31,609 nucleotides of DNA, taken from positions 39,451-71,059 of the forward strand of contig JAWBTQ010000007.1 of NCBI GenBank assembly GCA_038841535.1. The letters are read 5' to 3'. This document shows, piece after piece, positions 1,528 to 31,609 of the stretch; within the stretch, counting starts at the first letter, position 1, and each line of letters begins with the position of its first letter. Made by a program: the position numbers and the translations under genes. The notes below the pieces were generated by a model. It made no database searches and was not told where the DNA came from. It was given only the letters and a program-made list of their open reading frames with translations. The DNA is from Sulfolobales archaeon (lineage in GTDB: Archaea > Thermoproteota > Thermoprotei_A > Sulfolobales > NBVN01).

Positions 1528-1892
1528 GCACTATAGTGGCGCACGTAGAGCTTGGTGAATTAAGAGAGCAGAAGCTAGTTGAGAGTTCCGTTGAAGATGC
1601 TGTGAGGAACCTGCTCTTCGAGGTGCTGAGCCTATGGGACCCGAGGAGGTCTGACCTAGTGGTTACTAGAGAGAGGTTGCTGGACATTAAGCCGGAGCTC
1701 GCCGAGTACGGAGATGTGGATGTATACGTAGTTAGCTACGATATCGAGTGGCGAGACGATAGCGTTGTAGATAAAAGATTCTTTATTGTTATGAAGAACT
1801 TGGGTGAAGTTAGTACTGAGGTTATTTCTGAGCTCGTCAATCTCTCTAGGGTAGCGTTACTTGAGTTCGAGAAAGAAGTTAAGAGTATCTAA
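1515..1892 (+). CDS. Hypothetical protein
   Basis: 125-aa ORF overlapping the upstream stop, with protein-like acidic composition. The true start may be TTG at 1524. Confidence 0.65.
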   Translation: MFTLSTIVAHVELGELREQKLVESSVEDAVRNLLFEVLSLWDPRRSDLVVTRERLLDIKPELAEYGDVDVYVVSYDIEWRDDSVVDKRFFIVMKNLGEVSTEVISELVNLSRVALLEFEKEVKSI

Positions 1893-9680: not shown

Positions 9681-9766
9681 TTTAGCTTGGCAGAATGCGG
9701 GGTTCGGGTCCTCTCTTCACACGGCGGAAATCCCCGTGGTCCGGGGTTCAAATCCCCGCGGGCCCA
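9671..9766 (+). tRNA. tRNA-Pro(CGG) with a 22-nt canonical intron (9709-9730)
   Basis: Acceptor stem GGGCCCG/CGGGCCC-A; anticodon stem CGGGG/CCCCG with CGG at 9705-9707; T arm CGGGG-TTCAAAT-CCCCG; bulge-helix-bulge (TTCG pairs with CGGA, bulges GG|T and AA|T); CCA not encoded. Confidence 0.95.
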
Positions 9767-9970
9767 CTCACCACACTACAGCTTTGTGGTTACTTCCAAC
9801 CACTTTGAGGTGATGGCACTCGGCTCTACGAGATAGAATGGCCTTTGTTTATTTCAAGAAGGAACGACGGTAGGCTGAGGCGTTAAGGCGGCTTTAGCTA
9901 TCTGCGCTTCTCAATACTTGCGGGTTCTATCAGTGATACTCTCCACGTTTAACACTACTTTAAGTAGGTA

Positions 9971-11578: not shown

Positions 11579-12468
11579 GGACATATATCGCAGAGAGTGA
11601 CATCTAACCATCGTCCGTACCTACCCGCTAAAATGACTCCGTAGTCTTTAAGGACTCTTTGTACTCCGCCGACATCTCCCTCCATCCTAAAGTACTTGAT
11701 GAAGAAGGGTCTTACGAGCCTGACGGGCCCCTCAATGAGCTTGAGTCTCTTAAGCTCGACTACAGCCTGGCTTGCTAGCTCAGCTTTGAGGGATCCTCTC
11801 CCAATGGGTATGAAAGCGTAGATAAGCCTGCCTAGCGGATGCTTACCGTAGCTAACAACGTAACCTAGAGAGTGGCCTTTGCGACCAACAAGCACCTTGG
11901 TGTATTCCCCCAGCTTTGTGTCAGAGATTACGAGGAGAGCGTGTGCGGATGAATACTCTAAGTAATCTACTAGCTTATTTAGACCGCTCTTAGATAGAAA
12001 GTAGTGGAGGGGTAGGGTGTTTACGAGCTCTTCGTACTCTACTTCATAGTGATACGTTTTTACGTGTTTAGACTGTAGGCTTACTTTAGAGATAGGTGAA
12101 AAGACTCTAGTGGCTCTAGACTTAGTGAGAAGCCTCCTGTAATACGCACACACAGGGTGCTCTGGAACTAGAACTTTCCCGCTGAAGCCTATGAATGACC
12201 TACTAATATCACCTAGCTTCTCAGCTACGTTGGCCTCAAAACCCTCGATAACGATCTCTACATCTACATCTCTTAAGTTACTACCAAAAAGCTGTTGGCA
12301 ACAACTCCTACGAAGAAATACGGGTATGCGGTCTAAGCAAGATGAACCCAAGCTCCACCCGTAGAGGTCGCTACCACCTTCCCAGAAGTCGATAATTACG
12401 TCATCTTCTCTTGCTAGAAGGTTTGTCGTTAACGAATTCCCTAAGAATACCCTTCTCGCCTTCCTCAC
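11575..12468 (-). CDS. Hypothetical protein, distantly FAD-oxidoreductase-like
   Basis: Degenerate N-terminal Rossmann motif (VFLGNSLT), YEELVNTLPL, C-terminal GVILAGRYGRW. Confidence 0.55.
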   Translation of the reverse strand: MRKARRVFLGNSLTTNLLAREDDVIIDFWEGGSDLYGWSLGSSCLDRIPVFLRRSCCQQLFGSNLRDVDVEIVIEGFEANVAEKLGDISRSFIGFSGKVLVPEHPVCAYYRRLLTKSRATRVFSPISKVSLQSKHVKTYHYEVEYEELVNTLPLHYFLSKSGLNKLVDYLEYSSAHALLVISDTKLGEYTKVLVGRKGHSLGYVVSYGKHPLGRLIYAFIPIGRGSLKAELASQAVVELKRLKLIEGPVRLVRPFFIKYFRMEGDVGGVQRVLKDYGVILAGRYGRWLDVTLCDICP

Positions 12469-12742
12469 TCGCCTCCCTTGTAGTTGGTACTCCGATTTTC
12501 TTATACCTTTTAGTGTGCCAATGAGTCCTCATGTGATTTATTAAGTCCTCCACCGAGATAAAGAGAGGTACGTCAGCAACCGGGAGGTTACCCTCGCGAT
12601 TACTGGGACAGAGATCCTCGATGCTTATAGTGCTGCAGACCGGGCAAACCATTAGTGACGTAGTGAGGTCGAGACACGTAACAACAGTAATCCCGTAAGA
12701 ACTGAGTTCCCTCCTTACCCAGCGAGGCTCCCAGTAACTCAT
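12401..12742 (-). CDS. C2H2-type zinc-finger protein
   Basis: CPVC ... LINHMRTH; start overlaps the upstream stop. Confidence 0.7.
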   Translation of the reverse strand: MSYWEPRWVRRELSSYGITVVTCLDLTTSLMVCPVCSTISIEDLCPSNREGNLPVADVPLFISVEDLINHMRTHWHTKRYKKIGVPTTREASEEGEKGILREFVNDKPSSKRR

Positions 12743-12951
12743 TTGCCCAGCTCCTCTAAGCGCTTGAGTCTACTCAACACGCTATCCAGCCCCTTAGTAT
12801 CTACATCGTAACCGAGGCTCTTCAACTTATATAATATGGCTAACCTTAGCGCTTCACTACGGCAACTAACGACACCAGCCCTAACTAGGTGATCAATGAG
12901 TTCCACAACATCTCCAGGAAGTCGAACTGATATTAAAGCATCGGCATTCAC
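12739..12951 (-). CDS. Ribbon-helix-helix (CopG/MetJ) protein
   Basis: ISVRLP..VELIDHLV..G...RSEALRLAI. Confidence 0.8.
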   Translation of the reverse strand: MNADALISVRLPGDVVELIDHLVRAGVVSCRSEALRLAILYKLKSLGYDVDTKGLDSVLSRLKRLEELGK

Positions 12952-17928: not shown

Positions 17929-18999
17929 CTAGAAGTACGTGAGCTCCCTACTCCTGTACTCACCCACTATGTTTAGCTTATAGCCGCACTTCGGGCACAT
18001 GTTTCCTTGCTTCAAGTTCCAGTCTATGATGTAGAAGCCGTACCTTCTTACTGCTAGGTACCCGCACTTAGGGCAGTACGTGTTCTCTAGCTTGTGGCCT
18101 GGGATGTTACCTAGGTACACGTGCTTTAAGCCTTCTTCAATAGCTACTTGAGCCAGCTTCTCGAGGGTCTTTACGTCGGTTGGGGGTAGGTAGCTCAGCT
18201 TGTAGTGAGGGTAGAACCTCAGAAGGTGGAACGGTGTTTCTGCACCGATCTCGTCAGCTATCCACCGAGCTATCCTCTTTATGTCGGCTGGTTCCTCCCC
18301 ATACCTCGGAACTACCAGATTCGTAATCTCAACGAAAATGCCTTTCCTCTTCATCTCCGATATGGTGCTGAAGACCGGCTCTGGGTCGTGAACACCCATG
18401 TACTTTAGGTAGAAGGTCTTGCTGCCACCTCCCTTAAAGTCTACGGTAGCTGCGTCCATGTACTTAGATAGCTCACTGAGGGCTTCTTCGCTTATGTACC
18501 CGTTAGTCACCATAGTGTTAAACAACCCCTCTTTTTTCGCTAACTTCGCTACGTCGTACATGTACTCGTAGAATATGGTTGGCTCATTATAGGTGTAGCT
18601 AACACCATCGCTTCCAGCTCTCTTAGCTAGCTTAACTAGCTCTTCGGGGTCGACGTATTCACCGAATATCTCGTCTCTTCTTGATTGCGAGAGAGTCCAG
18701 TTCTGGCAGAAGGAGCACATGAAGTTGCATCCAGCGGTCGAGATAGAGAAGACTGCTGAACCTGGGTGGAAGTGCATTAGCGGCTTCTTCTCTATTGGGT
18801 CGACATTAGCTGCTGTTAGTAGTCCGTACACTAGAGTGTAGAGAACTCCCCTCTCGTTGTATCTAACTCCACAGGCTCCGAAGCCCCCATCAGCTATCGG
18901 GCAACGCTTGTAGCATAAATCACACCTGACTTTATCGCCCTCTAGCTTCCTCCAGAAGAGGGCTTCGCGGACCCAAGGTCTATCTAATCTTGGCTTCAT
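17929..18999 (-). CDS. amrS: AmmeMemoRadiSam system radical SAM enzyme
   Basis: DPIEKKPLMHFHPGS, CNFMCSFCQNW, YTYNEP, and N-/C-terminal Cys motifs. Confidence 0.9.
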   Translation of the reverse strand: MKPRLDRPWVREALFWRKLEGDKVRCDLCYKRCPIADGGFGACGVRYNERGVLYTLVYGLLTAANVDPIEKKPLMHFHPGSAVFSISTAGCNFMCSFCQNWTLSQSRRDEIFGEYVDPEELVKLAKRAGSDGVSYTYNEPTIFYEYMYDVAKLAKKEGLFNTMVTNGYISEEALSELSKYMDAATVDFKGGGSKTFYLKYMGVHDPEPVFSTISEMKRKGIFVEITNLVVPRYGEEPADIKRIARWIADEIGAETPFHLLRFYPHYKLSYLPPTDVKTLEKLAQVAIEEGLKHVYLGNIPGHKLENTYCPKCGYLAVRRYGFYIIDWNLKQGNMCPKCGYKLNIVGEYRSRELTYF

Positions 19000-19019: not shown

Positions 19020-19874
19020 CTAGGTCTTTTTTAAGCTGGAATCTCTGAGGGCTTTTAGTACAGTGTACTTAGTGATTACTCCAAGTAACTCTCCACTGCC
19101 GCTAGCAACTGGTAATACGTCGACGTTATTTCGAACTATTATTTGAGCTACTGAAGCTAGGTCGTCCTCTAGCTTCACAGTCACGACGTCAGTATCCATG
19201 ATCTCCGACACCATGACTGCTGGATATACCTTTATAGCTGTCTCGAGCCCTCTAGGGGAGATCCCCCTGACTCTCAGAGGCTTCTTAATGCCTGTTGCCG
19301 CCATACTCAAGAAAGCTAGGTCTCTCGCTGTTACTACACCTACTACCCTACTCTTGTCTACTACTACTACGGGCTGTCCTACCACTACCTTCTCTATGGC
19401 GTAGAAAACCGAGTGCTCAGGGCTGCATGTTTGGACTTCCTTCTCGATGTAGTCTCCTACTTTGTGTAGACCTTCGAAGTTCTCGGAGTATGCTCTAACT
19501 AAGTCGGTTCGCGTAATTATGCCAGTTATCTTCATTGTAGCTATATCCCTCACTATAACTAGTGAGCCCACGCTCTTCTCGAGCATTCTTCTTGCTGCGT
19601 ACGTTACGCTCCTCGTTGGTAGTATGGCGTAGACGGGTTTAGACATAATGTCTTGGGCTTTAATGTCCGTGAGTGGTTTATATAGCCACTTCCGGTTGTA
19701 CATTAGCTTGACGAAGTCGCTCCTACTGATCATTCCATGAGGTCTCTCATCTACTGATATGACTATGTGCCCAACTTTGTACTTTAGCATGAGGTTTCTA
19801 ACTCTCGCTAGGTTGTCTTGTGGGTGTGCCGCTACTACTGGGTGGCTCATGTAGTGCTCTACTTTTACTCTCAC
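19020..19874 (-). CDS. CBS domain protein (4 CBS)
   Basis: Repeated M..V...P and GIIT..D motifs. Confidence 0.9.
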   Translation of the reverse strand: MRVKVEHYMSHPVVAAHPQDNLARVRNLMLKYKVGHIVISVDERPHGMISRSDFVKLMYNRKWLYKPLTDIKAQDIMSKPVYAILPTRSVTYAARRMLEKSVGSLVIVRDIATMKITGIITRTDLVRAYSENFEGLHKVGDYIEKEVQTCSPEHSVFYAIEKVVVGQPVVVVDKSRVVGVVTARDLAFLSMAATGIKKPLRVRGISPRGLETAIKVYPAVMVSEIMDTDVVTVKLEDDLASVAQIIVRNNVDVLPVASGSGELLGVITKYTVLKALRDSSLKKT

Positions 19875-19885
19875 ACAACCACCTC

Positions 19886-20812
19886 CTAGGACCCAAGTAC
19901 TGCGTACATTATATCTCTCTCTGTTAGTATTCCCTGTAGGACTCCTCCTTCGGCTACTAGTCCGTAGTCGAGGTTCTTTTCGAGCATCTTCCTCACTAAG
20001 TCTTCGAGCGGGGTTGATGGCTCGACTACTATTACGTCTCTATCTGCTAGACTTACTGCCTTCATGCTGAGAACTTCGCTTACTACACCGCTTTCGGAGG
20101 CTGCGAATATCTGGTGGGACCCTACGAAGTCAAGTATGCTGCGCCACGTAACTACTCCCCTTATCTTTCTGTCACTTGTTGTTAGTGGGATCCTCCTCAC
20201 ACCAGTTGATACCATCAGCTTGAGTACGTCTGTTAGTGGGCTTTCTTCATCTGCTGTTATTACGTTTTTAGTCATGTAGCTGCCTGCGGGCTTCATACCG
20301 ATTCTTCCTGAGTAGAGCTTGACTATGCTTCCCTCAGTTACTGCTCCCACTAGCTGCTTGTCTAGTCCTAGGACGGGTATTAATCCGTAGCCGTAGGTCA
20401 CCATTAGCTCGAGGACTTTGCTTAGGGTATCGCTAATGCTGGCGTATACGACGTTCTTGCTCATTAGCTCTTGTACTGGTACTGCTAGAGCTTTGTAGAT
20501 GTTGCTTCCGTATCTTTCGACTACTATCTTGTGCCTCCCCCCTCCACCTAGGTAGTCTGCGATATCGTGAAAAGTTATTATGCCCGATAGCTCACTAGCT
20601 TTAACAACTATGGCCGCTCTAAACCTCGATCTATGCATTTCTTCAGCGCACTTTATGAGGGGTGTCTGGGGTGATACTACTGGGATCTCTGTTACTAGTA
20701 GAGACCTTATCTCAGGCTCTCTCCCGCGGATAGCTGTCTTGAAGTTCGGTTTTCCGTCGCTTCTCAACCACCTCGCTTTCTCGTACATCCTCCTAGGGTT
20801 CGGGAGCTTCAT
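19886..20812 (-). CDS. CBS domain protein (4 CBS)
   Basis: GIITFHDIADYLGGG, GAVTE, GVVTW, GILTERD. Confidence 0.9.
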   Translation of the reverse strand: MKLPNPRRMYEKARWLRSDGKPNFKTAIRGREPEIRSLLVTEIPVVSPQTPLIKCAEEMHRSRFRAAIVVKASELSGIITFHDIADYLGGGGRHKIVVERYGSNIYKALAVPVQELMSKNVVYASISDTLSKVLELMVTYGYGLIPVLGLDKQLVGAVTEGSIVKLYSGRIGMKPAGSYMTKNVITADEESPLTDVLKLMVSTGVRRIPLTTSDRKIRGVVTWRSILDFVGSHQIFAASESGVVSEVLSMKAVSLADRDVIVVEPSTPLEDLVRKMLEKNLDYGLVAEGGVLQGILTERDIMYAVLGS

Positions 20813-21609
20813 TTTCCCACCTGCTTTAGCTTTAGGTATGCTCTACACACGTCACTCCTATCTACTATACCCCGTAGACTGCCTTTACTGTCGACTACGG
20901 GTACTCTACCGATGTTGTTTCTTACCATTAGCTCTGCTGATGTATACATGTCTTCACCTCCTCCTACGGTTAGTGCTGGAGAGGTCATGGCCTCCCTGAC
21001 CTTAGGGGTCCTCGGTCCCGACTCTGACTCAAGCTCTATCCTCGTGTAACCCTTCTTCAGTAAGTCGTGTTGAGTCACTATACCCACGACTCTTCGGTCT
21101 CTCCCGCTCCTCACTACTGGGAACCCTGCGTACTTAGTCTTAACCATCTTCCTCCACAGCTTAGCCACCGAGTCCTCCGGGGTGACGTACTCTACTTCAG
21201 ACGACATGTAGTCTCTAACTAACCCCAAGCTCCTCTTCTCCGAGAGCTCTAGTAGAGCACTCTTAATGAAGCCGTCGATCTCGAGAACCCCCTCGTACCT
21301 ACCCGCAGGAGAGACTACAGGAGCATACCACTCGTCGAGCTCCAGCATAACCCTTAAAGCAGTCCAGAGGTCTTCGTCGAGCCCGAAGACCACTCTAGGA
21401 GACTCCATAACGTCCCTCACTAGAACGTTAGACCTAGTCGAAGTAACCACTAACACACTCTCCCTAGTTAAAACCCCGACGACTCTACCACCATCAACAA
21501 CAGGAACCATCCTCAAACCCAGATCCCTCATCAAGGACCTAGCGTGAGTAAGCAAGTAATCCCTACCTAAAGTAGGATACCTCAAGCTAAGAATACTCCT
21601 AACCCGCAT
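20809..21609 (-). CDS. CBS domain protein (4 CBS)
   Basis: PVVDGGRVVGVLT, GIVTQHDLL, GRVPVVD...GIVDRSD. Confidence 0.9.
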   Translation of the reverse strand: MRVRSILSLRYPTLGRDYLLTHARSLMRDLGLRMVPVVDGGRVVGVLTRESVLVVTSTRSNVLVRDVMESPRVVFGLDEDLWTALRVMLELDEWYAPVVSPAGRYEGVLEIDGFIKSALLELSEKRSLGLVRDYMSSEVEYVTPEDSVAKLWRKMVKTKYAGFPVVRSGRDRRVVGIVTQHDLLKKGYTRIELESESGPRTPKVREAMTSPALTVGGGEDMYTSAELMVRNNIGRVPVVDSKGSLRGIVDRSDVCRAYLKLKQVGK

Positions 21610-21726: not shown

Positions 21727-21833
21727 CTTTCAGTCTTTTCTGATTGCTTCCTATCTTTGCTCTATTTCGGGGTTTTTATAAGTTTTCATGGTTAATTTCG
21801 GAAAACCCATCAAACCCCATCAGGAGCCGGATG
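21727..21833 (-). CRISPR. CRISPR leader plus a single repeat (GAAGCAATCAGAAAAGACTGAAAG at 21727-21750); left arm of the 107-bp inverted repeat
   Basis: Reverse complement of 30857-30963 with 2 mismatches; BRE/TATA GAAAACTTATAAAA; no second repeat seen. Confidence 0.9.
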
Positions 21834-22752
21834 TTGGTGTTGTTATTGTGGTGTGTCCGAAGCCTATTGCTCTCGATGTTCCTATTCCGAGTGTGAGTGC
21901 TGTTGCGAACGTTTCTTCCAGTAGTGCTTCTGTGTTTATGCCTTTGGCTGTGTATAGATCTAGGTAATGTTTATTGAGGTAGAGGTTTACGTACCCTATG
22001 AGAGCTGGTATCGGGTTTTTACCTTCTTCATATTTGAGCCGTATGACCTTGATTGTTTTGTGGATTGAGTACGGTTCGTTGAGTAGCCTGTGGAGTATTA
22101 TCAACATCCTTATAAGGTGCTTCTGTTTAAGCTTGCCTGTAAGGTAAAGGTTCACATAGACCGGTGTGGAGAATATGTTTATCGGTGTAGGTGTTAGAGA
22201 CTTGTGCTTCCCGATTCTAAAGGGGTCCCTCAGTAGAGTGGGTGATGCAAAGACCACTCTTATCTTACCCAACTTAATGAGGTCATGCACCGCTTTCTTA
22301 GCCTCACTTACCACGTCTACGGTCTCTGCAGATACTAGCTCAACGTCGAATACGTTCGCCCCGAAGCGTCTGCGACCGCTTAAGTTTAGGATGGCATCGT
22401 ACACATCGTTGAACTTGGGGCTGATGGCTGTAGACGTCTCGATGAACCCTACGTAGAAGCTGTACCTAGAGGAGCCGTTGACGTACCTAAGCGAGTGTAT
22501 GCACTTCGTGCGTAGCTTTCCACCCTCAACTCTCTCGATGTAGAGGGGAGTTATATGGACGAGCTTGGGGGATCTTCCGGAAGCCTTCTCGAAGAAGGGC
22601 TTCAGCCTAGGGTTGCCGTCTATCAGCAGGGACTTCACTAGCTTTCCGGAGAAGGAGTCAGCTCTCGATCTTCCCCCACCGCCCCGATTTTCAGCCCTCT
22701 CGTTAACCTTGACTACAGCCCTAAGTAAGTACTTCTCCATCCCTCTACCCAC
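21820..22752 (-). CDS. cas6: CRISPR pre-crRNA endoribonuclease Cas6
   Basis: C-terminal G-rich loop GIGTSRAIGFGH; FASPT motif; locus context. Confidence 0.88.
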   Translation of the reverse strand: MGRGMEKYLLRAVVKVNERAENRGGGGRSRADSFSGKLVKSLLIDGNPRLKPFFEKASGRSPKLVHITPLYIERVEGGKLRTKCIHSLRYVNGSSRYSFYVGFIETSTAISPKFNDVYDAILNLSGRRRFGANVFDVELVSAETVDVVSEAKKAVHDLIKLGKIRVVFASPTLLRDPFRIGKHKSLTPTPINIFSTPVYVNLYLTGKLKQKHLIRMLIILHRLLNEPYSIHKTIKVIRLKYEEGKNPIPALIGYVNLYLNKHYLDLYTAKGINTEALLEETFATALTLGIGTSRAIGFGHTTITTPTSGS

Positions 22753-23413
22753 CAGCTCCTACATAGATTAAATGTCCTAGCTCGGTTAGCCTTACAACAT
22801 CGCTGTCAACGACCACTAACCCTCTTTGAGTCAGGCTTTTGACAAGTTTGTACACAGCTGACTCCGAAAGCCCTGCCTCACGCGAAGCTGTCTCGACCAG
22901 CCGGCTCCTCTTCACCTCACCGTGGCTGTGGATGATTCTCATTACGGCTAGCCCGCTCCTAGGTATAGTTACGTAGAACGACTCTAGCGGGAGAGCTACG
23001 TCGTACAGCCCGTCTTCGCGCATCAGGAGCACCTTGCTTCTCACCTGCTGGAACCTGCCGAGCCTGTAGAGCGTGAGTAGCGCGAAGAGGACCTCGAAGA
23101 TCACCAGCCTCATACCGCCAGCAAGCACGGCTACCACTTCATCGGCTTTCTGCTCTTTCAGAGATCTCAGCACTACCGCCACATCGTCGTAGAAGCTCGT
23201 CCCAGATACCTCCACCTCGACAACCCCAGCACCAGTACTCCGAATGATTTCCTTAAGCACCTCAACAGCTCTCCCAACCTTCTTAACCTCGAACTCCCCA
23301 CCGGTCTTCGAGTAGACGAGCATGACCGTGTCGCTGACATCTACACCAACCTTCAGCATCCCCCTCAGCGGAAGCTTCTCATCGAATCCGACAGTAACTA
23401 CTACTAATTTCAT
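22745..23413 (-). CDS. csa3: Csa3 CARF-wHTH transcriptional regulator
   Basis: VTVGFDEK and LAGGMR CARF motifs; C-terminal wHTH (LSESAVYKLVKSL..RGLV...LTELG). Confidence 0.9.
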   Translation of the reverse strand: MKLVVVTVGFDEKLPLRGMLKVGVDVSDTVMLVYSKTGGEFEVKKVGRAVEVLKEIIRSTGAGVVEVEVSGTSFYDDVAVVLRSLKEQKADEVVAVLAGGMRLVIFEVLFALLTLYRLGRFQQVRSKVLLMREDGLYDVALPLESFYVTIPRSGLAVMRIIHSHGEVKRSRLVETASREAGLSESAVYKLVKSLTQRGLVVVDSDVVRLTELGHLIYVGAGG

Positions 23414-23525: not shown

Positions 23526-25244
23526 TTGAGCCTGGGTGCTTTACTCTACGGGGTCCCGGTGTACAGGGAGAGCGGTAGTACGTATTCGGTTAAGGTACCG
23601 TTAGTAAGGATCCACCTCCACAACGACGTTGTTGCCAACGCGTACAAGTACGTGGTCTACAGGTTCTCCCAGTACGCATACCTCCGGATGGGCGTTATCA
23701 TCAGGAACTACACTCCCCCAGCCGGAACCATAGACGTAGAGGTTCCAGCTGAAGCCCTGCCGAGCGGTAGGAGCGCAGAGAAGCTCGTGCTAAGCTTGTA
23801 CAGGGAGTTCGTAGAGCAGTACCTTGCACCAAGACTCATCGAGAGAATACGCACGGCTAGTCTCGACGACCTGCTAGCAGTATTCTACAGGAGACGCAAC
23901 GAGGGAGGACCACAAACCGGGCTCACGTCCGTGATTCTACCTCTGAAGTACATGAAAAACTACATCGAGGACATTAAGTTGAACAAGTGGGCTATACAGA
24001 AGCAAAGCATTGAAGCCCTGAAGAAAATAGAGGGGAAGATCAGCAAGGAGGTTCAAAGGCTAAAGGACAAAGGTGTTAAAAAAGACGACCTGGTTATCGT
24101 AGGGAAAAACGGAGACGTAGTACCCCTTGAGACGGCGAGGATTCAGGAGGAGCTCGGGAAGACCTCGCTCTTCAGCGACGACGTAAAGTACGTGAGCAGG
24201 AATACTAAAAGGTGTTGCTACTGTGGATCGGAGATAAAAGAACCGGGTTTCCCGGCTACGGGCAAGCTGGGTGTTGGCAGGTACAGGCTTCCACAGGTGG
24301 AGAAGACCAATTTATCCGGTGAGGCGCTTGTCTGCCTCAGGTGTGTTCTCCTTTCAATGTACTACGTTCTCGAAGGCGGTGAGAACACTCTACTCTACAC
24401 GTTCAACGGCTTGCTGGGTGTTTTCATAGCCGAGGGGAGGCTTCCCAGCGGTACAACGGTGGACTTCGCAGTTGCCTTAGCAAAGCAGTTGGCGAGGAAA
24501 CCGGCTGAGCTGACCGCGTCGATGGTGATGAACAGCGCTTTCGGAGAGGAGAGAGCAAAGCTCCAGGTGGAGAACCTGAACGAGGTTGCTGTTGAAAGGC
24601 TCGCTCTCCTAGCGCACGTGTTTCCACTAGCTCTACACGACGAAGCCGTGCAACGAGAACTCATCAACTACATGTTCTCCGAACCCCCTGCTTTCATATC
24701 CCACCTGGTCTACGTTCTGTTGAAGCAATTGGAAAAGGGGGGAGGTATGAGCTACGTATCGAAGGAAATACCCAGGTACATAACCCCCTACCTCTACAGG
24801 GAGAAGGAGTTGAGAGTAGCGTACACACTGGCGGCAATAGCCGAGGGAGTGATCCACCGCCTAAAGCAGGACGGAGCAGACAACTACACCCTCAAAGAGG
24901 TCGCGAACAACCTCACCACAGGCGGGTTAACCACAGCACTATCCTACGCCATCCAGAGAATGGAAACCCCACCCTCAGCGATCGCACTATCCAAGTTCAT
25001 CGATAGAACACTAGCTAAGGAAGTACTCGGCGAGTACGGGTTCAGATACGATGAGGGGGAGGATGGCACCATACTCGTCTACTTGAACACCATACCATCA
25101 GCCGAGGTAAAGATCCGCGAAGAGCTCGGCCAAAGAGTCTTCAACAGAGCATACGATGTACTGCTAGTACTATCACCCGAGATAGCCACCCGGAAGAAGG
25201 GTGAATCAGAAGAGTCCAAGGGTGAAAGCGTTGCCCAGGGCTAA
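23526..25244 (+). CDS. Type I effector large subunit (Cas8/Cas10d-like, no HD domain) with C-terminal small-subunit domain
   Basis: First gene of the effector operon; Zn finger CCYC...CLRC; GGAGGTG SD before the TTG start; helical C-terminus. Family assignment rests mainly on position. Confidence 0.7.
   Translation: MSLGALLYGVPVYRESGSTYSVKVPLVRIHLHNDVVANAYKYVVYRFSQYAYLRMGVIIRNYTPPAGTIDVEVPAEALPSGRSAEKLVLSLYREFVEQYLAPRLIERIRTASLDDLLAVFYRRRNEGGPQTGLTSVILPLKYMKNYIEDIKLNKWAIQKQSIEALKKIEGKISKEVQRLKDKGVKKDDLVIVGKNGDVVPLETARIQEELGKTSLFSDDVKYVSRNTKRCCYCGSEIKEPGFPATGKLGVGRYRLPQVEKTNLSGEALVCLRCVLLSMYYVLEGGENTLLYTFNGLLGVFIAEGRLPSGTTVDFAVALAKQLARKPAELTASMVMNSAFGEERAKLQVENLNEVAVERLALLAHVFPLALHDEAVQRELINYMFSEPPAFISHLVYVLLKQLEKGGGMSYVSKEIPRYITPYLYREKELRVAYTLAAIAEGVIHRLKQDGADNYTLKEVANNLTTGGLTTALSYAIQRMETPPSAIALSKFIDRTLAKEVLGEYGFRYDEGEDGTILVYLNTIPSAEVKIREELGQRVFNRAYDVLLVLSPEIATRKKGESEESKGESVAQG
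24747..25244 (+). CDS. Putative internally translated Cas11 small subunit (165 aa, MSYVSKEIPRY...)
   Basis: In-frame ATG (codon 408) preceded by AAGGGGGGAGGT, which encodes a KGGG linker. Confidence 0.55.
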   Translation: MSYVSKEIPRYITPYLYREKELRVAYTLAAIAEGVIHRLKQDGADNYTLKEVANNLTTGGLTTALSYAIQRMETPPSAIALSKFIDRTLAKEVLGEYGFRYDEGEDGTILVYLNTIPSAEVKIREELGQRVFNRAYDVLLVLSPEIATRKKGESEESKGESVAQG

Positions 25245-26421
25245 GGAGAAGAAAGAAAGCGACCAGTCCGAAGACCAGTCGGTGAAAGAGAGCAGAAAAG
25301 GAAAGGGAGATGTGGAGATCGACGTTAAGTCCGCCGACGACCTCCTGTTCGCCGGTTGCAAACTAGTCAACATGGCTATCTACGCTATGCTGGAAGCACC
25401 GCAGGAGCTGTACTTCGGTAGTCATACTGAGAGAGGTCTGAACGTGCTGGAGAAGGTAACACTACAAGTGGAGATCGGCGAAGGAGAAAACACGAAGTAC
25501 GTTACCGTAGAGAAACCCTTCTATAGTCCAACCAAGCAGAGAGGCGTAGAGAGGAGAGCCATAGCCTACTCCAAGGTGAGAACATCCAGCGGTGCAGAGA
25601 TGCCGTACTACAAGTTCTTCAATCTAAGCATAGACGTCACCAACACCTACCCGAACGGGCAACCGGACCCAAGGGACATACTGACCTTTCTGTGGGGCGC
25701 CACGTGGACTAAACCCACCCTCTACCTCCGTGGCAGAGTAGGCTACGGTGGTGGAGTAGCCGTTCAGCCGAGATCAATACTCATCAAGCGCAGGAACCGC
25801 GTTGAGTACAGGTTCTTCGAGCGCGTCGAGAAGGAGGAGAGAGAGGGAGCAGGGGTGACAGCTCAGACGACGTGGCTCAAGGAGTACGTTGAACCCCACG
25901 TTCTCATACCCGTCTACCGTAGCTACACGTTGCTCGGGGTTAAAAACATGGAGCCTCACGCAATAGCCTACGCTTTCCTGATGGGACTAAGGCTAGCTGG
26001 TGCAGGAACCCCAAAGGGAATGGACGTGCTGGAAGCCTACTGGCTGAGCAAAGACACCAAGGAGAGAGTCATCGTAGTCGACGTGAGCGCATCGCTACTG
26101 CCTGAACCCGTGGTGATCTCGCCGGCGATACTATCGGTTCAAGCGGCTTTAGAGGAGTTCGGAAGGAAAGCCCTCAGCGTAGACGAGAAAAACCTCTGCA
26201 GAGGTTTTGACAACCCAGACCAAGTGTTCGACAAGGCGCTGAAAGAAGGATACTGCAGGCTCATCGGAAACACAGCGTACAGTTTCCTCAGGAACTTAGC
26301 AGAGAAGTTCGCAGAGAACTACCTGATGAAGATAGATGCACCTGAACTACTCAGAGTTAAAGAAACATCCAAGGAAAAGTGTGAGGAAGAGCAGAAAACA
26401 GCAAAAGAGGAGCAGAAGTAG
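25231..26421 (+). CDS. cas7: Cas7, Csc2 (type I-D)-like
   Basis: KQRGVERR, FLWGA, GRV, EYVEP and GAGT match the order of Csc2 motifs. Probable start is TTG at 25231 after GGGTGA (ORF track gives 25201). Confidence 0.78.
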   Translation: MPRAKEKKESDQSEDQSVKESRKGKGDVEIDVKSADDLLFAGCKLVNMAIYAMLEAPQELYFGSHTERGLNVLEKVTLQVEIGEGENTKYVTVEKPFYSPTKQRGVERRAIAYSKVRTSSGAEMPYYKFFNLSIDVTNTYPNGQPDPRDILTFLWGATWTKPTLYLRGRVGYGGGVAVQPRSILIKRRNRVEYRFFERVEKEEREGAGVTAQTTWLKEYVEPHVLIPVYRSYTLLGVKNMEPHAIAYAFLMGLRLAGAGTPKGMDVLEAYWLSKDTKERVIVVDVSASLLPEPVVISPAILSVQAALEEFGRKALSVDEKNLCRGFDNPDQVFDKALKEGYCRLIGNTAYSFLRNLAEKFAENYLMKIDAPELLRVKETSKEKCEEEQKTAKEEQK

Positions 26422-26432
26422 AGGTAGGGGCT

Positions 26433-27395
26433 GTGAAGCTGTACAAGCTAAGGGTTCTTTTTTTATCGCACTCCTTTCTCCCCGTATCCCCCATCCGCGA
26501 GTACTGGACCACTACACACACGCATCTGCCTCCCTCAACGCTCTCGGGTCTCTTCCTGAGAGCTGTGCTCTTCTCCATCAACCCGAGGAACGTGTACGGG
26601 GACTACACACCCTGCCGCATTGGGAGAGGACTACTCCTAAGGCTAAAGGGGATGCGTGCTGAGTGGTTCATCGCCGAGAGAGAAGAAGCTATCGAGGATG
26701 CTAAACCACCCTACCTCGAATACCACTTCAACGCAGTATCCCTCGGAGCCTACGACGAGGCAACACTACTGGGAAAGTCCTCCAAGTGGGGGTACATAGA
26801 GAAGTACTGGAACACGCTGAAGTACATAGACTACGAAGATGAGAACCTCCTAGCACCGTTCCACGTTGGAATAAAGACCTGGTTCTTCGCCGCGGCTGAC
26901 GGTGCAAGAATAACCGTACCCGGCGTGAAGGGGAGGAAGACGTTCATGACCTACGATGTGGTTAAAGTCAGGTTCGACATCCCCATGTCACACCTCCACG
27001 GGTTCATCCTGGTCGACGACGCTAAGCTCGAATCAGTAGTAGAGTTGCTCTTCAATGGATGGTTCATAAACAAATCGAGGCTTAAGACCCTTGTAGCTGT
27101 GAAGCTCGATGAAGTGCTGGTACCAGCAACGGAGAAAACGGGGAGACTGCTCGTTGTACCCTCCATCAGAATGCCCAGTAAACCCGTTAGGACAGTAGTC
27201 TCAAGCCTAATCTCCAGGGATGCCCTAGCGGGTAGAAGACGGGACATCTTCGTTGAGAAAGGCTTTCTCTACATCGAGAAACCCGAGGACGTGAACTTGG
27301 ACGACAAGCTCTTGTTCAAGGGGAGAAACGGTTCTCTCTACGCAGTCGACAAGTCCTGGCTCAACTACCTGAAATCACCCGGAGGAGGCGCGTAG
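26433..27395 (+). CDS. cas5: Cas5 (Csc1-like)
   Basis: N-terminal beta strand followed by THTHLPPSTLSGLF Cas5 signature; follows cas7. Confidence 0.72.
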   Translation: MKLYKLRVLFLSHSFLPVSPIREYWTTTHTHLPPSTLSGLFLRAVLFSINPRNVYGDYTPCRIGRGLLLRLKGMRAEWFIAEREEAIEDAKPPYLEYHFNAVSLGAYDEATLLGKSSKWGYIEKYWNTLKYIDYEDENLLAPFHVGIKTWFFAAADGARITVPGVKGRKTFMTYDVVKVRFDIPMSHLHGFILVDDAKLESVVELLFNGWFINKSRLKTLVAVKLDEVLVPATEKTGRLLVVPSIRMPSKPVRTVVSSLISRDALAGRRRDIFVEKGFLYIEKPEDVNLDDKLLFKGRNGSLYAVDKSWLNYLKSPGGGA

Positions 27396-27397
27396 AC

Positions 27398-28246
27398 TTG
27401 GCATCCGTTGCACGCGTGGTTCTCCGCGGCAGAGTATCTGGTGAGAGTTACGAGGCTGTAGCCGTAGCGCTGGACAGCCATCAGGAAGCAGTAGCTGAGA
27501 TAGTGGAGAAGCTCTTCGTGGACCCGGAGCTCTTGAAGAGCGTAGCGCTCGTACACGACAAGTTCAAGCCGGCTACGATGAGGCTTGAAGCACGCGGTGG
27601 AGAACAAAGGGTTGGGTTCAAAGGACACCCCTACATGCTCTCCTTCACCGACTTCGAGAACACGGGTGCCGGGTACAGCGTAGCAGACGTAGCGGTTGCC
27701 ACAGCCATCGGTAGGCTACACCACTTCATCAACGTCAGAGACGTCGACAGCTTCGTGTACACCATGGCCTTAGCAAAGTCCTACCTGGATTCGCGAGGAG
27801 CACACGTAAAGCTGAGCGATCTGAAGAAGAGAGTACTCCACGGTCTCCTCATACTGCACGTTGCAGACATGGTAGCCGGGTTCGCTGAGCAAGCCCTCCT
27901 GGAGAACACCGGTGAAGCAGAGCTCTACGACACTGAGTCGCTAGAAGCCGTTGAACCACATCTACCCCTCTCCATGACCATCAGCTTCGCGGGCGACGGA
28001 GCTGAACTACGGGTTGTACTGCACGGGCTAAGCGATGTTCTCCGCGGAGGAGTGCTCGAGAACGGTGCATCGTTCGACCTCAACTACCAGGTGTGCAAGG
28101 GTACTCTACACGTCCTCGGTGGAACCGGAAGAGCCGTCTTCGAGCCCGACTCCTGCACCACCAGGGTTATACACGTCAGCGTTGTCCACAAGCGAAGGTT
28201 GATCAATGAAAAACTGATCAGGGGTAAAACCGAATTGGTGATGTAA
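27398..28246 (+). CDS. cas3'': Stand-alone Cas3'' HD nuclease
   Basis: LDSH, VHDKFK, GHP, RLHH and VAD form the H-HD-K-H-HH-D pattern. Confidence 0.82.
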   Translation: MASVARVVLRGRVSGESYEAVAVALDSHQEAVAEIVEKLFVDPELLKSVALVHDKFKPATMRLEARGGEQRVGFKGHPYMLSFTDFENTGAGYSVADVAVATAIGRLHHFINVRDVDSFVYTMALAKSYLDSRGAHVKLSDLKKRVLHGLLILHVADMVAGFAEQALLENTGEAELYDTESLEAVEPHLPLSMTISFAGDGAELRVVLHGLSDVLRGGVLENGASFDLNYQVCKGTLHVLGGTGRAVFEPDSCTTRVIHVSVVHKRRLINEKLIRGKTELVM

Positions 28247-28248
28247 GC

Positions 28249-29865
28249 TTGGTCGAGTCAAGCAGGGATTACTACAGGCGGTTCTTCAAGCTGGTAACAG
28301 GGTTCGAACCCTACGAATGGCAAGTGGAGGTTGCAGAGAGACTTTTCGAGCTGGAGGAGAAAGGAGGTGTTCTGATCCTCAGAGCTGAAACGGGTAGCGG
28401 TAAGACTGAGGCATCGGTTCTTCCGAGCTTATTCCTCGGCAGACAGGTCATCATCGTGGAGCCCTATAGAGCACTGATCGAGGACATGGTGGCGAGATTC
28501 GAAAAATATCTTGCGAAGCTATCGAAAACCCTTGGCGTTGGATGCACCCTTGGGGTAGACTACGGCGGTAGACACTATATCTACGAGTGCACCGAGAACG
28601 AGTGTGGAGAGAGACCGACTATGAAGCCGTTCGGAGCAGACATCCTAGTCACAACGATCGATGAAATGGTCTACAGGATCCTGTCGATAGGGACCCCCAG
28701 GAAGGCGAGCCTATACACCTCCCTAGTTAGGAGCAGTAGACCTGTGGTCTTCTTCGATGAGGCGCACTCCTATACGAGCGAAGCCTTCAACCCGATGGTG
28801 ACCCTCGTACACTTAACCGCATCCCTCCCTATGTACACTCCAGTCGTCATCGCCACCGCGACCCTACCCAAGAGCGTTGAGGAGCACCTAGAGATCGTAG
28901 CTAAGAGGAACGGTGTTAGCTTAATCAAAGTCGGCACTCCCAAGCCAGAGAAGAAGCCTCCGAAGGCACGCATTGAGCTGGACCTCAGAGAGTTCAAAGA
29001 TCATGAAGAGCTGGTCAGAGCTTTAGTCGAGCACGCCGATAAGTACGTAAGTAAGGGCTTCCGCAAGATCCTAGTAAGGGTGGTCACGCCGGAGATAGCC
29101 TACTCCGTGTACGCTAGGCTATTAAAACACGTGAGCCAAGGGTATGGGGTTGGAGTGCTCCACGGTAGGATTCCCATATACGATAGAGAGAGGGTGTATA
29201 GAGCGGTTAGAGATGACGTAAGTAGAGACGAGAATGTGATACTGGTGTCGACCTCAGTTATAGAGGCTGGTGTAGACCTCGACTTCGACGCCGGGGTCCT
29301 CGAGCTAACACCGTATAGAAGTCTGGAGCAGACCATGGGCAGGGTGAACAGGAGGTATGCGAAGAAGAACTCCGAAGCGACTATAGTGAACACCTTGGAC
29401 AGTACGTGGGGGATACTGGAGGAGCTGAAATACCTCGAAGAGGTTAGAAAACTGCTCGCAGAGCTGGGAAGTGGGGTCGAGTGGGATGGAGACCTATCGC
29501 CGAAGCTGAAGGAGATCGACGAGAGGTACACCAAGGATAGACTGTCGGTAGCCAACCTCGTGGACGCCTACAACAGCCCCTACTCTAGGATTCTAGCCAT
29601 ATCTCTCTACTCCCTCTTCCACCTAGAGGGAACATTCCTCGAGCACTTGCTAGCCCTATCAAAGACGGAATACGAAACGAGAGGTACCCTAGACATAGAG
29701 GTAGAGGTCGAAGGTGAGCCAAGAAACGTACTAAGGATACCGTATTCGATAGCAAGGGAGTACGGCATAAACGCAACAAAAACAGTACCCAAGGAGCTCT
29801 TAGTAGACCACAGCTACGTGAGGAATGAGAAGAGAATAGAAGCTAGAGGTCTTATATCCACATGA
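28249..29865 (+). CDS. cas3': Cas3' SF2 helicase
   Basis: PYEWQ, AETGSGKT, DEAH, TAT, LHGR, STSVIEAGVDLDFD, QTMGRVNR. Confidence 0.93.
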   Translation: MVESSRDYYRRFFKLVTGFEPYEWQVEVAERLFELEEKGGVLILRAETGSGKTEASVLPSLFLGRQVIIVEPYRALIEDMVARFEKYLAKLSKTLGVGCTLGVDYGGRHYIYECTENECGERPTMKPFGADILVTTIDEMVYRILSIGTPRKASLYTSLVRSSRPVVFFDEAHSYTSEAFNPMVTLVHLTASLPMYTPVVIATATLPKSVEEHLEIVAKRNGVSLIKVGTPKPEKKPPKARIELDLREFKDHEELVRALVEHADKYVSKGFRKILVRVVTPEIAYSVYARLLKHVSQGYGVGVLHGRIPIYDRERVYRAVRDDVSRDENVILVSTSVIEAGVDLDFDAGVLELTPYRSLEQTMGRVNRRYAKKNSEATIVNTLDSTWGILEELKYLEEVRKLLAELGSGVEWDGDLSPKLKEIDERYTKDRLSVANLVDAYNSPYSRILAISLYSLFHLEGTFLEHLLALSKTEYETRGTLDIEVEVEGEPRNVLRIPYSIAREYGINATKTVPKELLVDHSYVRNEKRIEARGLIST

Positions 29866-29947: not shown

Positions 29948-30171
29948 CGGGTGTGTAACTGTTTTAGTGTGCTAGGTTTTTGTAGGTCTCTCTAGGATGC
30001 TTAGAGCTCTTGACGTGATTAAGTTTAGCAAGGTTTATAAACTAGTGAGTACATATAAATGCTTTGGTGACCCTGGGTTTCCGAGACCTACGGCAGACCG
30101 TGGGGAGGGGGCTCAGGGAAACCGTGATGACCCGCCCCAGGAAAACCTACAAAACCTAGGACGGGAAACGG
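29948..30171 (+). mobile_element. Putative non-autonomous element with inverted subterminal motifs, internal promoter and structured RNA
   Basis: ctaggtttttgtagg (29972-29986) is an imperfect inverted match to cctacaaaacctag (30146-30159); TTTATAAA at 30034; stems ggtttcc/ggaaacc and cctacgg/ccgtggg; GTGATGA at 30124; ends AAACGG. Confidence 0.5.
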
Positions 30172-30231
30172 TAGGGAGCCACGGAAGGGGGATGTGATAA
30201 ACTCCTCGATAGACTGTGTCTTCTGTAAAAG

Positions 30232-30466
30232 TTTTTAAGCTGTTTTAGCTACTATAAGTGTTTGGAGGATGTATCCCGCCTCGATGACGGCGTGGTAGCC
30301 ATCAGAGGCGGGAGGATACATATATACCTCGAGGCGGGCTCTGTGGTGCCCGTCGATGTAGCTCCCAATGACCCTGCGAACAATGAGCAGGTGATGAGGG
30401 AGAAGCCCGTGTCGACAATACCCAAGACAATCAAAACACCTAAACAAACCCAAACAAACGACACGG
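30232..30466 (+). mobile_element. Second tnpB-3'-end-like structured cassette, fused to the cas1 remnant
   Basis: TTTTTAAG at 30232; hairpin atgtatcccgcctc (30269-30282) / gaggcgggaggatacat (30305-30321); cgggct/agcccg stem; GTGATGA at 30391; A/C-rich tail ending ACGG. Confidence 0.45.
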
Positions 30467-30468
30467 GC

Positions 30469-30870
30469 AACCACTTCCTCTACGCTGTGCTCTACGGAGT
30501 CGTAACTAAAGCAATAGTTACTACTGGGTTAGACCCCTTCTATGGGCTAGTTCATGCGTTGAAGAGCGGTCGATTATCGCTTACGTACGACCTCTCAGAG
30601 GTGTTTAAACCACTAGCCATCCACGCTGTCATTCAAGCAAGTAGAAAAGCAAGACTGAGAACGCTGAGAGGCTCGAGAATGCTAACACCTAAAACGATTG
30701 AAGTAATCACTAGCCATTTGTATGGTAGGATATCGCGTGAAGGTGAGAGACTGTACAATAGAAAATCGTTATGGATACTACCTATAAGAGAGATTGCGAA
30801 ATTCAAGGACTCGATATTAAAGAGATTTAAATATGAAGCATACACTTATGATCCGGCATCCGGCTCCTGA
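30469..30870 (+). pseudogene. cas1: cas1 C-terminal fragment (N-terminal part missing)
   Basis: NHFLYAVLY...GLDPFYGLVH...SLTYDLSEVFKP are Cas1 catalytic His/Asp-Glu motifs. The first ~69 codons of ORF 30262-30870 are not Cas1-like. Confidence 0.85.
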
Positions 30871-31035
30871 TGGGGTTCGATGGGTTTTCCGAAATCAACC
30901 ATGAAAACTTATAAAAACCCCGAAATAGAGCAAAGATAGGAAGCAATCAGAAAAGACTGAAAGCACGTCGGGCGACGTGATCGTTGAGATGAGGCAGGCG
31001 GTCGACGGTATGAAGCAATCAGAAAAGACTGAAAG
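30857..31035 (+). CRISPR. Leader plus mini-array: 2 repeats GAAGCAATCAGAAAAGACTGAAAG (30940-30963, 31012-31035) and one 48-nt spacer
   Basis: Two identical 24-nt repeats; TTATAAAA at 30909-30916. Confidence 0.9.
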
Positions 31036-31092: not shown

Positions 31093-31609
31093 CTTTCAAT
31101 TCTATCCTTTAGATTCAGTTCAACGTGACTAGGGCGGAGATTAAGCCGCACATAGGCTTTCAATTCTATCCTTTAGATTCACCACGCTACTGCGTCGTTA
31201 AGCAGTAGAGCCAGCAAGGGGTCTTTCAATTCTATTCTTTAGATTCAAGATCTAGGCTGATAGGTATAATGTTCTTGGCGATTGCTGCTTTCAATTCTAT
31301 TCTTTAGATTCGGAACTCATCGTGTGTGTAGATGTGGTACGCTAGGTTAGACTCTTTCAATTCTATTCTTTAGATTCACTATCTTGTCTTCGGTAGGTAG
31401 CGACTCCCAGAACTTCCTTTCAATTCTATTCTTTAGATTCTCAAACACATATCTCCACACACCCTCAAGTACTAGAAAAAATCTTTCAATTCTATTCTTT
31501 AGATTCGGGCTAGCACGTCTATATCAAACCCTTCATCTTCTAGCTTTCCTTTCAATTCTATTCTTTAGATTCGTTTGGAGGGTTGTTGAGAGTGGTTTGG
31601 AGGACGGTC
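31093..31609 (-). CRISPR. CRISPR array trailer end, repeat GAATCTAAAGAATAGAATTGAAAG; 8 repeats, probably continuing beyond the window
   Basis: Repeats start at 31093, 31157, 31223, 31288, 31354, 31417, 31483 and 31549, with 39-42 nt spacers. The two leftmost repeats carry one substitution; ATTGAAAG 3' end indicates minus orientation. Confidence 0.97.

Follow-up and report, generated by a model that had tools for sequence, protein, structure and literature searches.

The 31,609-nucleotide stretch of Sulfolobales archaeon DNA analysed here (hereafter the window) is the terminal 31.6 kb of a 71-kb contig, with whose end it coincides, in a genome that is 84% complete and divided into 40 contigs. 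Positions 23526 to 29865 are occupied by five tightly spaced open reading frames (ORFs) on the same (+) strand, separated by overlaps or gaps of at most 44 nt and encoding, in order, proteins of 572, 406, 320, 282 and 538 amino acids (aa). This operon is probably a complete type I interference module of a CRISPR-Cas system, belonging to an archaeal branch (Thermoproteota, from hot springs) of a family that is typed I-B and includes the system carried by plasmid pTT27 of Thermus thermophilus. As judged from sequence comparisons, the module comprises a Cas8-Cas11 fusion as large subunit (LS), Cas7, Cas5, Cas3'' (the HD protein) and Cas3' (the helicase), plus divergent cas6 and csa3 genes (Table 1), and the archaeal branch appears to be strongly diverged and compacted rather than a chimera of types I-A and I-D.

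Table 1. Features of the cas locus and its surroundings in the window.
Feature	Position	Strand	Description
Large subunit (LS)	23526..25244	+	572 aa; short HD-less Cas8 with CxxC...CxxC and a fused Cas11-like tail
Putative internal cas11	24747..25244	+	165 aa; start at Met408; small subunit
cas7	25201..26421	+	406 aa; codon 8 is a possible alternative start; Csc2-related backbone, no Cys knuckle
cas5	26433..27395	+	320 aa; assigned by position and weak homology
cas3''	27398..28246	+	282 aa; predicted stand-alone HD nuclease
cas3'	28249..29865	+	538 aa; superfamily 2 (SF2) helicase, no HD
cas6	21820..22752	-	310 aa; PADLOC Cas6 PDLC01127 (1.3e-43)
csa3	22745..23413	-	222 aa; CARF and winged helix-turn-helix regulator; divergent from the effector operon
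Solitary cognate repeat	21727..21750	-	No spacer; exact reverse complement of repeat 30940; outer end of the left leader
Left leader copy	21751..21833	-	Overlaps the last 14 nt of cas6; inverted duplicate of 30857-30939
Right leader copy	30857..30939	+	Inverted-duplication partner of the left leader
Mini-array	30940..31035	+	Cognate repeat, 48-nt spacer, repeat
Second CRISPR array	31093..31609	-	8 copies of a different repeat, whose reverse complement ends in ATTGAAAG; reaches the contig end
cas1 remnant	30473..30870	+	C-terminal third only; ORF 30262-30870 starts inside an insertion
Two MITE-like insertions	~29950-30169, ~30213-30472		Between cas3' and the cas1 remnant

The five effector genes are real, intact and under purifying selection. 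The ratio of nonsynonymous to synonymous substitution rates (dN/dS) lies between 0.11 and 0.37 in all 10 comparisons of the effector ORFs with their orthologues in two other loci (L003 and L004). Operon DNA is found in contigs of four hot-spring metagenome runs from four studies, many pieces showing no difference, and at least 74% of the sampled words are present in 11 runs from five studies, one of whose samples may be where the window came from. None of the sequencing runs listed as carrying this DNA is an RNA data set.

Most of the module is invisible to profile libraries. Among the five effector proteins, Pfam and NCBIfam name the helicase alone and PADLOC adds Cas7, while the LS, Cas5 and HD proteins have no match in any of the three. 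Searches of the LS, Cas7, Cas5 and HD proteins against PDB sequences, with single sequences and with profiles, returned nothing significant. All relatives of LS, Cas7 and HD that have a source name (including those among the 16 HD relatives) are called 'hypothetical protein'; a standard annotation pipeline would therefore show Cas3', Cas6 and Csa3 by themselves and overlook a complete Cascade. The archaeal clade is also rare. We detected seven LS relatives in a word-indexed search and 15 with HMMER (E <=0.001) among 1.84 billion protein representatives; the LS is encoded at four loci in three metagenome-assembled genomes (MAGs) among 185,579 species genomes, and 400 further genomes sampled from the phylum yielded nothing with the Cas7-family profile.

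Gene order ties this clade to a wider family. When metagenome contigs were scanned with the Cas7 alignment, 139 stretches were confirmed and 80 of them retained; Cas7 could be placed in 70 of the 80 and in four genome loci, making 74 loci, 17 of archaeal type (at least 48% identity) and 57 of bacterial type (about 30% identity). The full order LS-cas7-cas5-HD-helicase is found in 11 of the 17 archaeal-type loci, and the other six end at contig edges and agree as far as they are present. The same order, LS-cas7-cas5-(HD)-helicase, recurs in the 57 bacterial-type metagenome loci and on pTT27. After removal of identical sequences, 15 bacterial-type loci have the split form, in which cas5 is followed by a protein of 245-347 aa and then a helicase of 584-718 aa, and 15 have the fused form, with a single protein above 800 aa (860-955 aa). 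In the plasmid collection, the bacterial type includes pTT27 of T. thermophilus HB8 and HB27 (15 Thermus records), where neighbouring genes are annotated 'hypothetical', cas3 and cas6. PADLOC recognizes Cas8b (PDLC01527, 1017 bits), Cas7b (PDLC01388) and Cas5b (PDLC01389) on pTT27 and gives the same names in three metagenomic split-type loci, whose HD proteins are barely or not recognized. Going by the names, the pTT27 match corresponds to the T. thermophilus HB27 system, which is functional and has been studied as type I-B, with a TTC protospacer adjacent motif (PAM) and a purified Cascade (PMC12102369).

The archaeal and bacterial Cas7 alignments match each other at 100% (hhalign), and the window protein matches the PADLOC profile PDLC01388 ('Cas7b, CAS-I-B') over 321 residues (2.4e-41), the own family of this model being Csc2-like. 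All 35 family members scanned match this profile, five match a Cas7d model (best 2e-5), three to four match Csc2 models of PADLOC, NCBIfam or Pfam, and none matches any other Cas7 model. An earlier note on this DNA had described Cas7 as Csc2-like, and at the family level this holds: taken together, the family gives 96.6% against ten Csc2 sequences from the phylum (183 columns, E 5.3e-10), versus 1.0% against twelve DevR/Csa2 proteins (0.1% for the control, Csc2 versus DevR). The likeness is confined to that level: the window protein itself matches no Csc2 model in the Pfam, NCBIfam and PADLOC scans and belongs to the archaeal half of the family, where similarity to Csc2 is 17.6%, compared with 94.1% for the bacterial half. 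Of the bacterial-type Cas7, 46 of 47 have a four-Cys knuckle (C..C..CPxC..[FYW]G), as do 6 of 10 Csc2. None of the 12 DevR has it, nor does any of the 16 archaeal-type Cas7, where TYxNGxPDPRDILTFLWGATW stands instead. The sole Cas protein in the PDB list for Cas7 is Csc2 (4txd), at a non-significant E of 0.73. Neither TIGR03157 (Csc2; present in 10 of 201 sampled genomes) nor PF01905 (present in 51 of 121 sampled genomes of the phylum) has a match in this genome. In bacterial-type members (L055-L121 and L041), the motif CG[IV]PxTCxxxxCPICx[VI][YF]G aligns with the Csc2 Cys cluster, and the 'Cas7b / I-B' label of the Thermus type thus hides an I-D-like backbone protein. Cas7 of this I-B-labelled family is therefore a Csc2-type protein, distantly related to Csc2 itself, and its most recognizable motif has been lost in the archaeal branch.

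The HD gene that the earlier note had placed between cas5 and cas3' is confirmed. Its product retains H28, H53-D54, H77, H108-H109, H154 and D157, and aligns with the bacterial split HD proteins at 93.2% over 145 columns (E 2.9e-7), with the H, HD, GH, LHH and D motifs in register. Compared with the N-terminal domain of fused Cas3, the bacterial split HD in turn scores 100% and the archaeal HD 81.9%; the latter scores 58.7% against I-A Cas3''. When all 967 ORFs of the fetched loci were searched, the HD hidden Markov model (HMM) selected the gene at the HD position.

The helicase is the best recognized member of the operon, with 124.8 bits for TIGR01587 (cas3_core; cut-off 102.45), DEAD and Cas3-like_C_2 domains (PF00270, PF22590), a PADLOC match to Cas3a1 (2.1e-43) and PDB matches at ~1e-18 to 7r2k and 7tr8. 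The latter, labelled only 'Cas3' in the database, we take to be the I-A Cas3' of P. furiosus. Scores are far below the cut-off for the I-G Cas3 model and for TIGR03158, the I-D Cas3' model (28.3 bits, cut-off 69.1). Archaeal and bacterial Cas3' match each other at 100%. A quick tree of 63 helicases (IQ-TREE, LG+G4, SH-aLRT support values, long-branch warnings issued) groups the 11 archaeal-type proteins together (support 100), as sister (91) to 31 proteins of the bacterial family (98) and apart from 12 I-A (99) and 9 I-D (96) helicases. Split and fused forms are interleaved inside the bacterial family. From this tree, the split Cas3 is best regarded as a trait of the family and not as a borrowed I-A module. 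In addition, the 12 I-A loci of the phylum have the order csa5-cas7-cas5a-(cas8a)-cas3', and in 11 an HD gene was found, placed behind the helicase. The earlier note's picture of a hybrid, with an I-D backbone joined to an I-A-style split Cas3, is therefore not supported.

The LS is indeed, as the earlier note had it, a 572-aa protein devoid of HD: it has no match in the libraries, and no His is found among its near-invariant residues in 17 relatives, which are C230, C233, C270, C273, G251, R252, R254, T261 and a few residues of the tail. It aligns with the bacterial Cas8b-type LS at 74.5% (E 2.7e-5) over 234 collinear columns, and its nearest ESM Atlas clusters (feature similarity 0.95) are Cas8b1/Cst1 and Cas_CXXC_CXXC. 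The Atlas model, itself poor (predicted TM score, pTM, of 0.36), has a TM score of 0.53 to a 766-aa Deinococcota protein.

A separate small subunit is probably encoded in the 3' part of the LS gene, as in types I-B, I-C and I-D, where internal translation of Cas11 is reported (PMC10212523, PMC11899642). We infer an internal start at Met408, whose ATG is directly preceded by GGGGGGAGGT, a G-rich tract resembling a Shine-Dalgarno sequence. At this site, 10 of 11 archaeal LS genes have an in-frame ATG and the other a TTG, each behind a G-rich tract. Natural splits occur at the same point: in L006 the LS gene is divided there into 428 + 164 aa with an ATGA overlap, one relative of 428 aa (P0007) stops there, and another of 163 aa (P0073) is a free-standing tail that starts there.

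Cas5 is identified mainly by its position. With the archaeal Cas5 HMM, 11 of the 12 best cross-group matches among the 967 ORFs are the gene right after cas7, and the twelfth lies one ORF further (E from 9e-4 to 0.09). The nearest ESM Atlas clusters are of the Cas5 family (0.94). Reverse HMM searches recover archaeal Cas5, HD and, weakly, LS (E 0.17-0.23).

Several observations weigh against placing the operon in the I-B-typed family. Homology of the LS to bacterial Cas8b depends on the 74.5% alignment and on a poor Atlas model; the HMMER link between archaeal and bacterial LS is obtained in one direction (E 0.17-0.23), with nothing in the other, and single Thermus LS sequences give 1-3% with hhalign, a comparison that is uninformative with single Thermus sequences for LS, Cas5 and HD alike, so that alignments of metagenome loci were used instead. 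PF09706 (Cas_CXXC_CXXC) has no match anywhere in the genome, and the LS, Cas5 and HD proteins match no Cas8b, Cas5b or Cas3 model of PADLOC, Pfam or NCBIfam. The archaeal LS is some 200-290 aa shorter than the bacterial one, and by hhalign its tail has no detectable sequence similarity to Cas11d (0.1%), Csa5 (0.6%) or the tail of the bacterial LS. Archaeal and bacterial Cas5 (Cas5b) align at 31.5%, weakly, over 46 N-terminal columns. Finally, the sister relation of the helicases, at an SH-aLRT of 91, falls below the mark of 95, in a quick tree made without bootstraps and accompanied by long-branch warnings. The LS and Cas5 assignments are the weakest links.

That the operon belongs to type I follows from the TIGR01587 score of Cas3', the homology of HD to the HD of Cas3 and the Cas7 match; its place within type I has rival readings. 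A reduced type I-D variant, in which a Csc2-type backbone would be combined with a shrunken HD-less Cas10d, an internal Cas11d and an HD in its own gene, is the earlier note's central idea stripped of its I-A element; it is unlikely but is the more serious rival of the two drawn from well-known subtypes. The family-level similarity of Cas7 to Csc2 speaks for it, as does the Cys knuckle that bacterial members share with Csc2, and precedents exist in the same phylum. In four Thermoproteota loci of I-D variants (L034-L037, in genomes G034, G070, G153 and G013), Cas10d lacks the HD and measures 587-664 aa, and the small subunit (143-187 aa) is encoded separately; one of these loci, L037, also has a separate 247-aa Cas3'' beside a 921-aa Cas3'. 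PADLOC 'Cas10_Id' models (616-670 positions) match Thermoproteota loci with a separate Cas11d. Moreover, variant VI-4 of Methanocella conradii has been described as I-D-like, its large subunit lacking the HD and Cas3 bearing it, and considered a possible intermediate (PMC3973734). VI-4 and the HD-less Cas10_Id loci show that an HD-less LS beside a Csc2-type backbone is not new in itself, and with the same gene order in 15 non-identical bacterial-type loci, an unprecedented arrangement is not supported. The zinc finger of the LS does align with Cas10d, and the same stretch links short to full-length Cas10d (27.4% versus 90.8%). Yet similarity to Cas10d reaches at most 27%, in the zinc-finger stretch only, and no PADLOC Cas10d model matches the LS; Cas5 compares with Cas5d at 0.2-1.2% and the tail hardly at all with Cas11d; the genome lacks TIGR03157, and Cas3' scores far below the I-D cut-off and falls outside the I-D group in the tree. 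The gene order of L037 (cas3'-cas3''-cas10d-cas11d-csc2-cas5d) also differs. A divergent type I-A, the commonest type I in Thermoproteota, having lost csa5 and been rearranged, is far less probable still. It would account for the split Cas3, for Csa3, for Cas3a1 as best PADLOC helicase model and for a repeat ending in GAAAG, like crenarchaeal repeats, but Cas7 matches DevR/Csa2 at 1.0-1.6%, PF01905 is absent from the genome, the LS matches Cas8a at 0.2% and Cas5 matches Cas5a at 4.3%, the tail is unlike Csa5, and the I-A helicases form a separate clade, with the HD gene usually on their other side. The result that would have sent the module to type I-A, Cas7 grouping with Csa2 and the LS matching Cas8a, is thus not what was found, and the earlier statement stands that the module belongs in neither of the canonical subtypes I-A and I-D.

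Two further readings concern rank. The archaeal lineage, perhaps together with the Thermus-type family, could be a subtype of its own, misfiled under I-B and lying between I-D and the Cas8-bearing subtypes. Three of the five effector proteins are invisible to Pfam, NCBIfam and PADLOC, Cas7 of the I-B-labelled family has Csc2 as its only relative among the Cas7 models, the family has no shorter LS than this one, which carries a fused Cas11, and such intermediates have been proposed by Vestergaard et al. (PMC3973734). Subtype rank is, however, a convention, and synteny and four of the five proteins tie the module to the I-B-typed family, so that we regard this reading as improbable. A more daring formulation, itself doubtful, is that the archaeal clade is a distinct type I lineage, still without a name and ranking as a variant or a subtype, with a knuckle-less Csc2-derived backbone, the smallest Cas8-Cas11 fusion of the family and a stand-alone Cas3'', and that with the Thermus-type family it bridges I-D and the Cas8-bearing subtypes; if so, the family is wrongly labelled I-B. 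As for an existing name, bacterial relatives with the same order are typed I-B and the wider family is therefore an already named variant, while its archaeal clade has neither a name nor an annotation. Nothing on this clade was found in the main-text passages and supplement files of the 2025 classification paper (PMC12669027) considered here, although the external data files of that paper may bear on it; and Vestergaard et al. (2014), in the part of the article considered here, list four type I variants, none of them crenarchaeal (PMC3973734). The earlier observation is thus partly confirmed, and its interpretation half right.

The CRISPR repeat that the earlier note had assigned to the operon, GAAGCAATCAGAAAAGACTGAAAG (24 nt, ending in ACTGAAAG), proves to be its cognate; the same repeat, in the form GAAGCAATCA[A/G]AAAA[G/A]ACTGAAAG, borders the orthologous operons on both sides (25 + 14 copies in L003 and 4 + 6 in L004). 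A related repeat borders L050 and L051. In the arrays of L003 (positions 1562-3438 and 11828-12832 of that locus), repeats are spaced by 73-78 nt, and spacers are thus unusually long (~49-54 nt); in L050 and L051 the spacing is ~62-72 nt. The present genome has three copies of the cognate repeat (30940, 31012 and the inverted one at 21727). Segments 21727-21833 and 30857-30963, each made of a leader together with the first repeat and the final 14 nt of the ORF next to it, form an inverted duplication with 105 of 107 positions identical, and the cassette is therefore framed by two outward-pointing leaders, both almost spacerless. By comparison, a full array sits at the position of the left leader in L003 and L004, and orthologous loci have 4 to 31 repeats at the position of the mini-array. 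Contig joints hint at alternative or absent mini-array spacers elsewhere, at a depth of 2-16 and with sides of 25 nt, which is too weak to use. We found no protospacer for the L003 array in a phage collection or for the 30-nt core of the window spacer in viral contigs, and no PAM was inferred. The second array probably belongs to another system; its two repeats nearest the cas genes show a T-to-C change (CTATCC), and the assembly yielded no effector genes to match it. Rfam has no CRISPR-DR family for either repeat.

Adaptation genes are reduced to a cas1 remnant, which matches PF01867 at model positions 194-253 of 283 only (residues 72-130) and is the sole Cas1 match in the 84%-complete genome. 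In the same genome, cas2 was not found, and cas4 is represented by a single sub-cut-off match at another place. The cas1 remnant follows two insertions resembling miniature inverted-repeat transposable elements (MITEs), whose contig depth in four metagenome runs is 20-70 times that of the cas genes. Stretches of 220 nt and 260 nt are skipped by contig joints, the latter stretch ending exactly at the start of the Cas1 similarity, and partial copies of the insertions are found on nine other contigs of the genome. A piece of ~44 nt (30130-30173) recurs on at least seven other contigs with 86-95% identity. In this genome, the module thus looks functional but almost unarmed, with one spacer, a solitary repeat and no adaptation genes of its own.

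By analogy with known systems, the module could work as follows. Csa3 would control the divergent promoters, and cleavage of the 24-nt repeat by Cas6, 8 nt before the 3' end, would leave ACUGAAAG as 5' handle. Cas5 would cap the handle of the CRISPR RNA (crRNA) and multiple Cas7 would coat the spacer, roughly 8-9 copies given spacers of 49-54 nt in L003. The PAM would be read by the Cas8 part of the LS (~407 aa, with the zinc finger), and the minor filament would consist of several Cas11 copies of ~165 aa produced from the Met408 start. Once an R-loop has formed, the helicase Cas3' and the stand-alone HD nuclease Cas3'' would be recruited and would degrade the DNA.

Cas6 scores under the cut-offs of TIGR01877 and PF10040, and an ORF of 302-311 aa is kept at its position in L003, L004, L044, L045, L050, L051 and L053. 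Csa3 matches PF22662 (Csa3_N, 4e-17) and the PADLOC models Csa3 (2.1e-24) and CARF3 (9.6e-29), and with 59.3 bits comes close to the cut-off of TIGR01884 (60.2). Next to cas6, three tandem paralogues with four CBS domains each (19020-21609, - strand) reach 37.8-58.5 bits for the NCBIfam 'CBS domain-containing anti-phage protein' (cut-off 260). They are followed by a radical SAM enzyme of the AmmeMemoRadiSam system (17929-18999, - strand; TIGR04337, 324 bits), adjoined by a YfcE-type phosphodiesterase and a type II glyceraldehyde-3-phosphate dehydrogenase. These being ordinary chromosomal genes, the cas locus lies on no obvious mobile element. Further away, a tRNA-Pro gene (CGG; 9671-9767, + strand; 96-97 nt, enough to accommodate an intron) overlaps the end of ORF 8748-9680.

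Identities to the orthologous loci are mosaic: 95% for Cas3', 62% for LS and 67% for Cas7 with L004, and 81%, 76% and 86%, respectively, with L003. Such values suggest recombination between the Cascade part and the Cas3 part of the operon. The MAGs that carry L003 and L004 bear labels of different orders (Desulfurococcaceae and Pyrobaculum), perhaps as a result of gene transfer or of faulty binning.

With the operon read as an archaeal branch of the I-B-typed family, this I-B-labelled family extends to archaea that are hyperthermophilic, where it is compact, Cas8 and Cas11 taking up 572 aa, and the module becomes a candidate small, thermostable Cascade for biochemistry, with long spacers (~50 nt) in its relatives. 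The classification is not overturned, as HD-less I-D-like variants and split-Cas3 members of the family are already present in profile sets and in the literature.

Compared with known systems, the module shares with type I-A of Thermoproteota the split Cas3, the Csa3 regulator, the host phylum and the repeat ending in GAAAG. It differs by the lack of similarity to Csa2, Csa5 and Cas8a (neither a Csa2/DevR Cas7 nor a separate Csa5 was found), by an HD gene preceding the helicase, the reverse of the I-A order, and by a Cas3' of a separate clade. With type I-D it has in common the remote Cas7-Csc2 homology and a small subunit in or after the LS gene, and with the HD-less I-D variants (VI-4 and L034-L037) an HD located off the LS, in L037 also in a separate Cas3''. 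Type I-D has a Cas10d with an N-terminal HD, Csc2 and Csc1, whereas the module has no HD on its LS, no detectable similarity to Cas10d, Csc1 or Cas11d beyond the zinc finger, another gene order and a Cas3' outside the I-D group. A canonical I-B locus would have a fused cas3 and adjacent cas4-cas1-cas2, in contrast to the separate cas3'' and cas3' and the lone cas1 remnant observed here. From the Thermus-type family, finally, the archaeal loci differ by a shorter LS (554-589 aa versus 735-870 aa), a Cas7 without the knuckle and with a longer N-terminus, a Cas5 of 305-338 aa versus 246-311 aa, Csa3 as regulator in place of the WYL protein of Thermus, the absence of adjacent adaptation genes, and LS, Cas5 and HD proteins under the detection limit of I-B models. 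They share with pTT27 (Cas8b, Cas7b, Cas5b, Cas3b and Cas6) and its bacterial relatives the order of LS, cas7, cas5, (HD) and helicase, as well as the CxxC...CxxC of the LS and, with 15 of these relatives, the split cas3''-cas3'.

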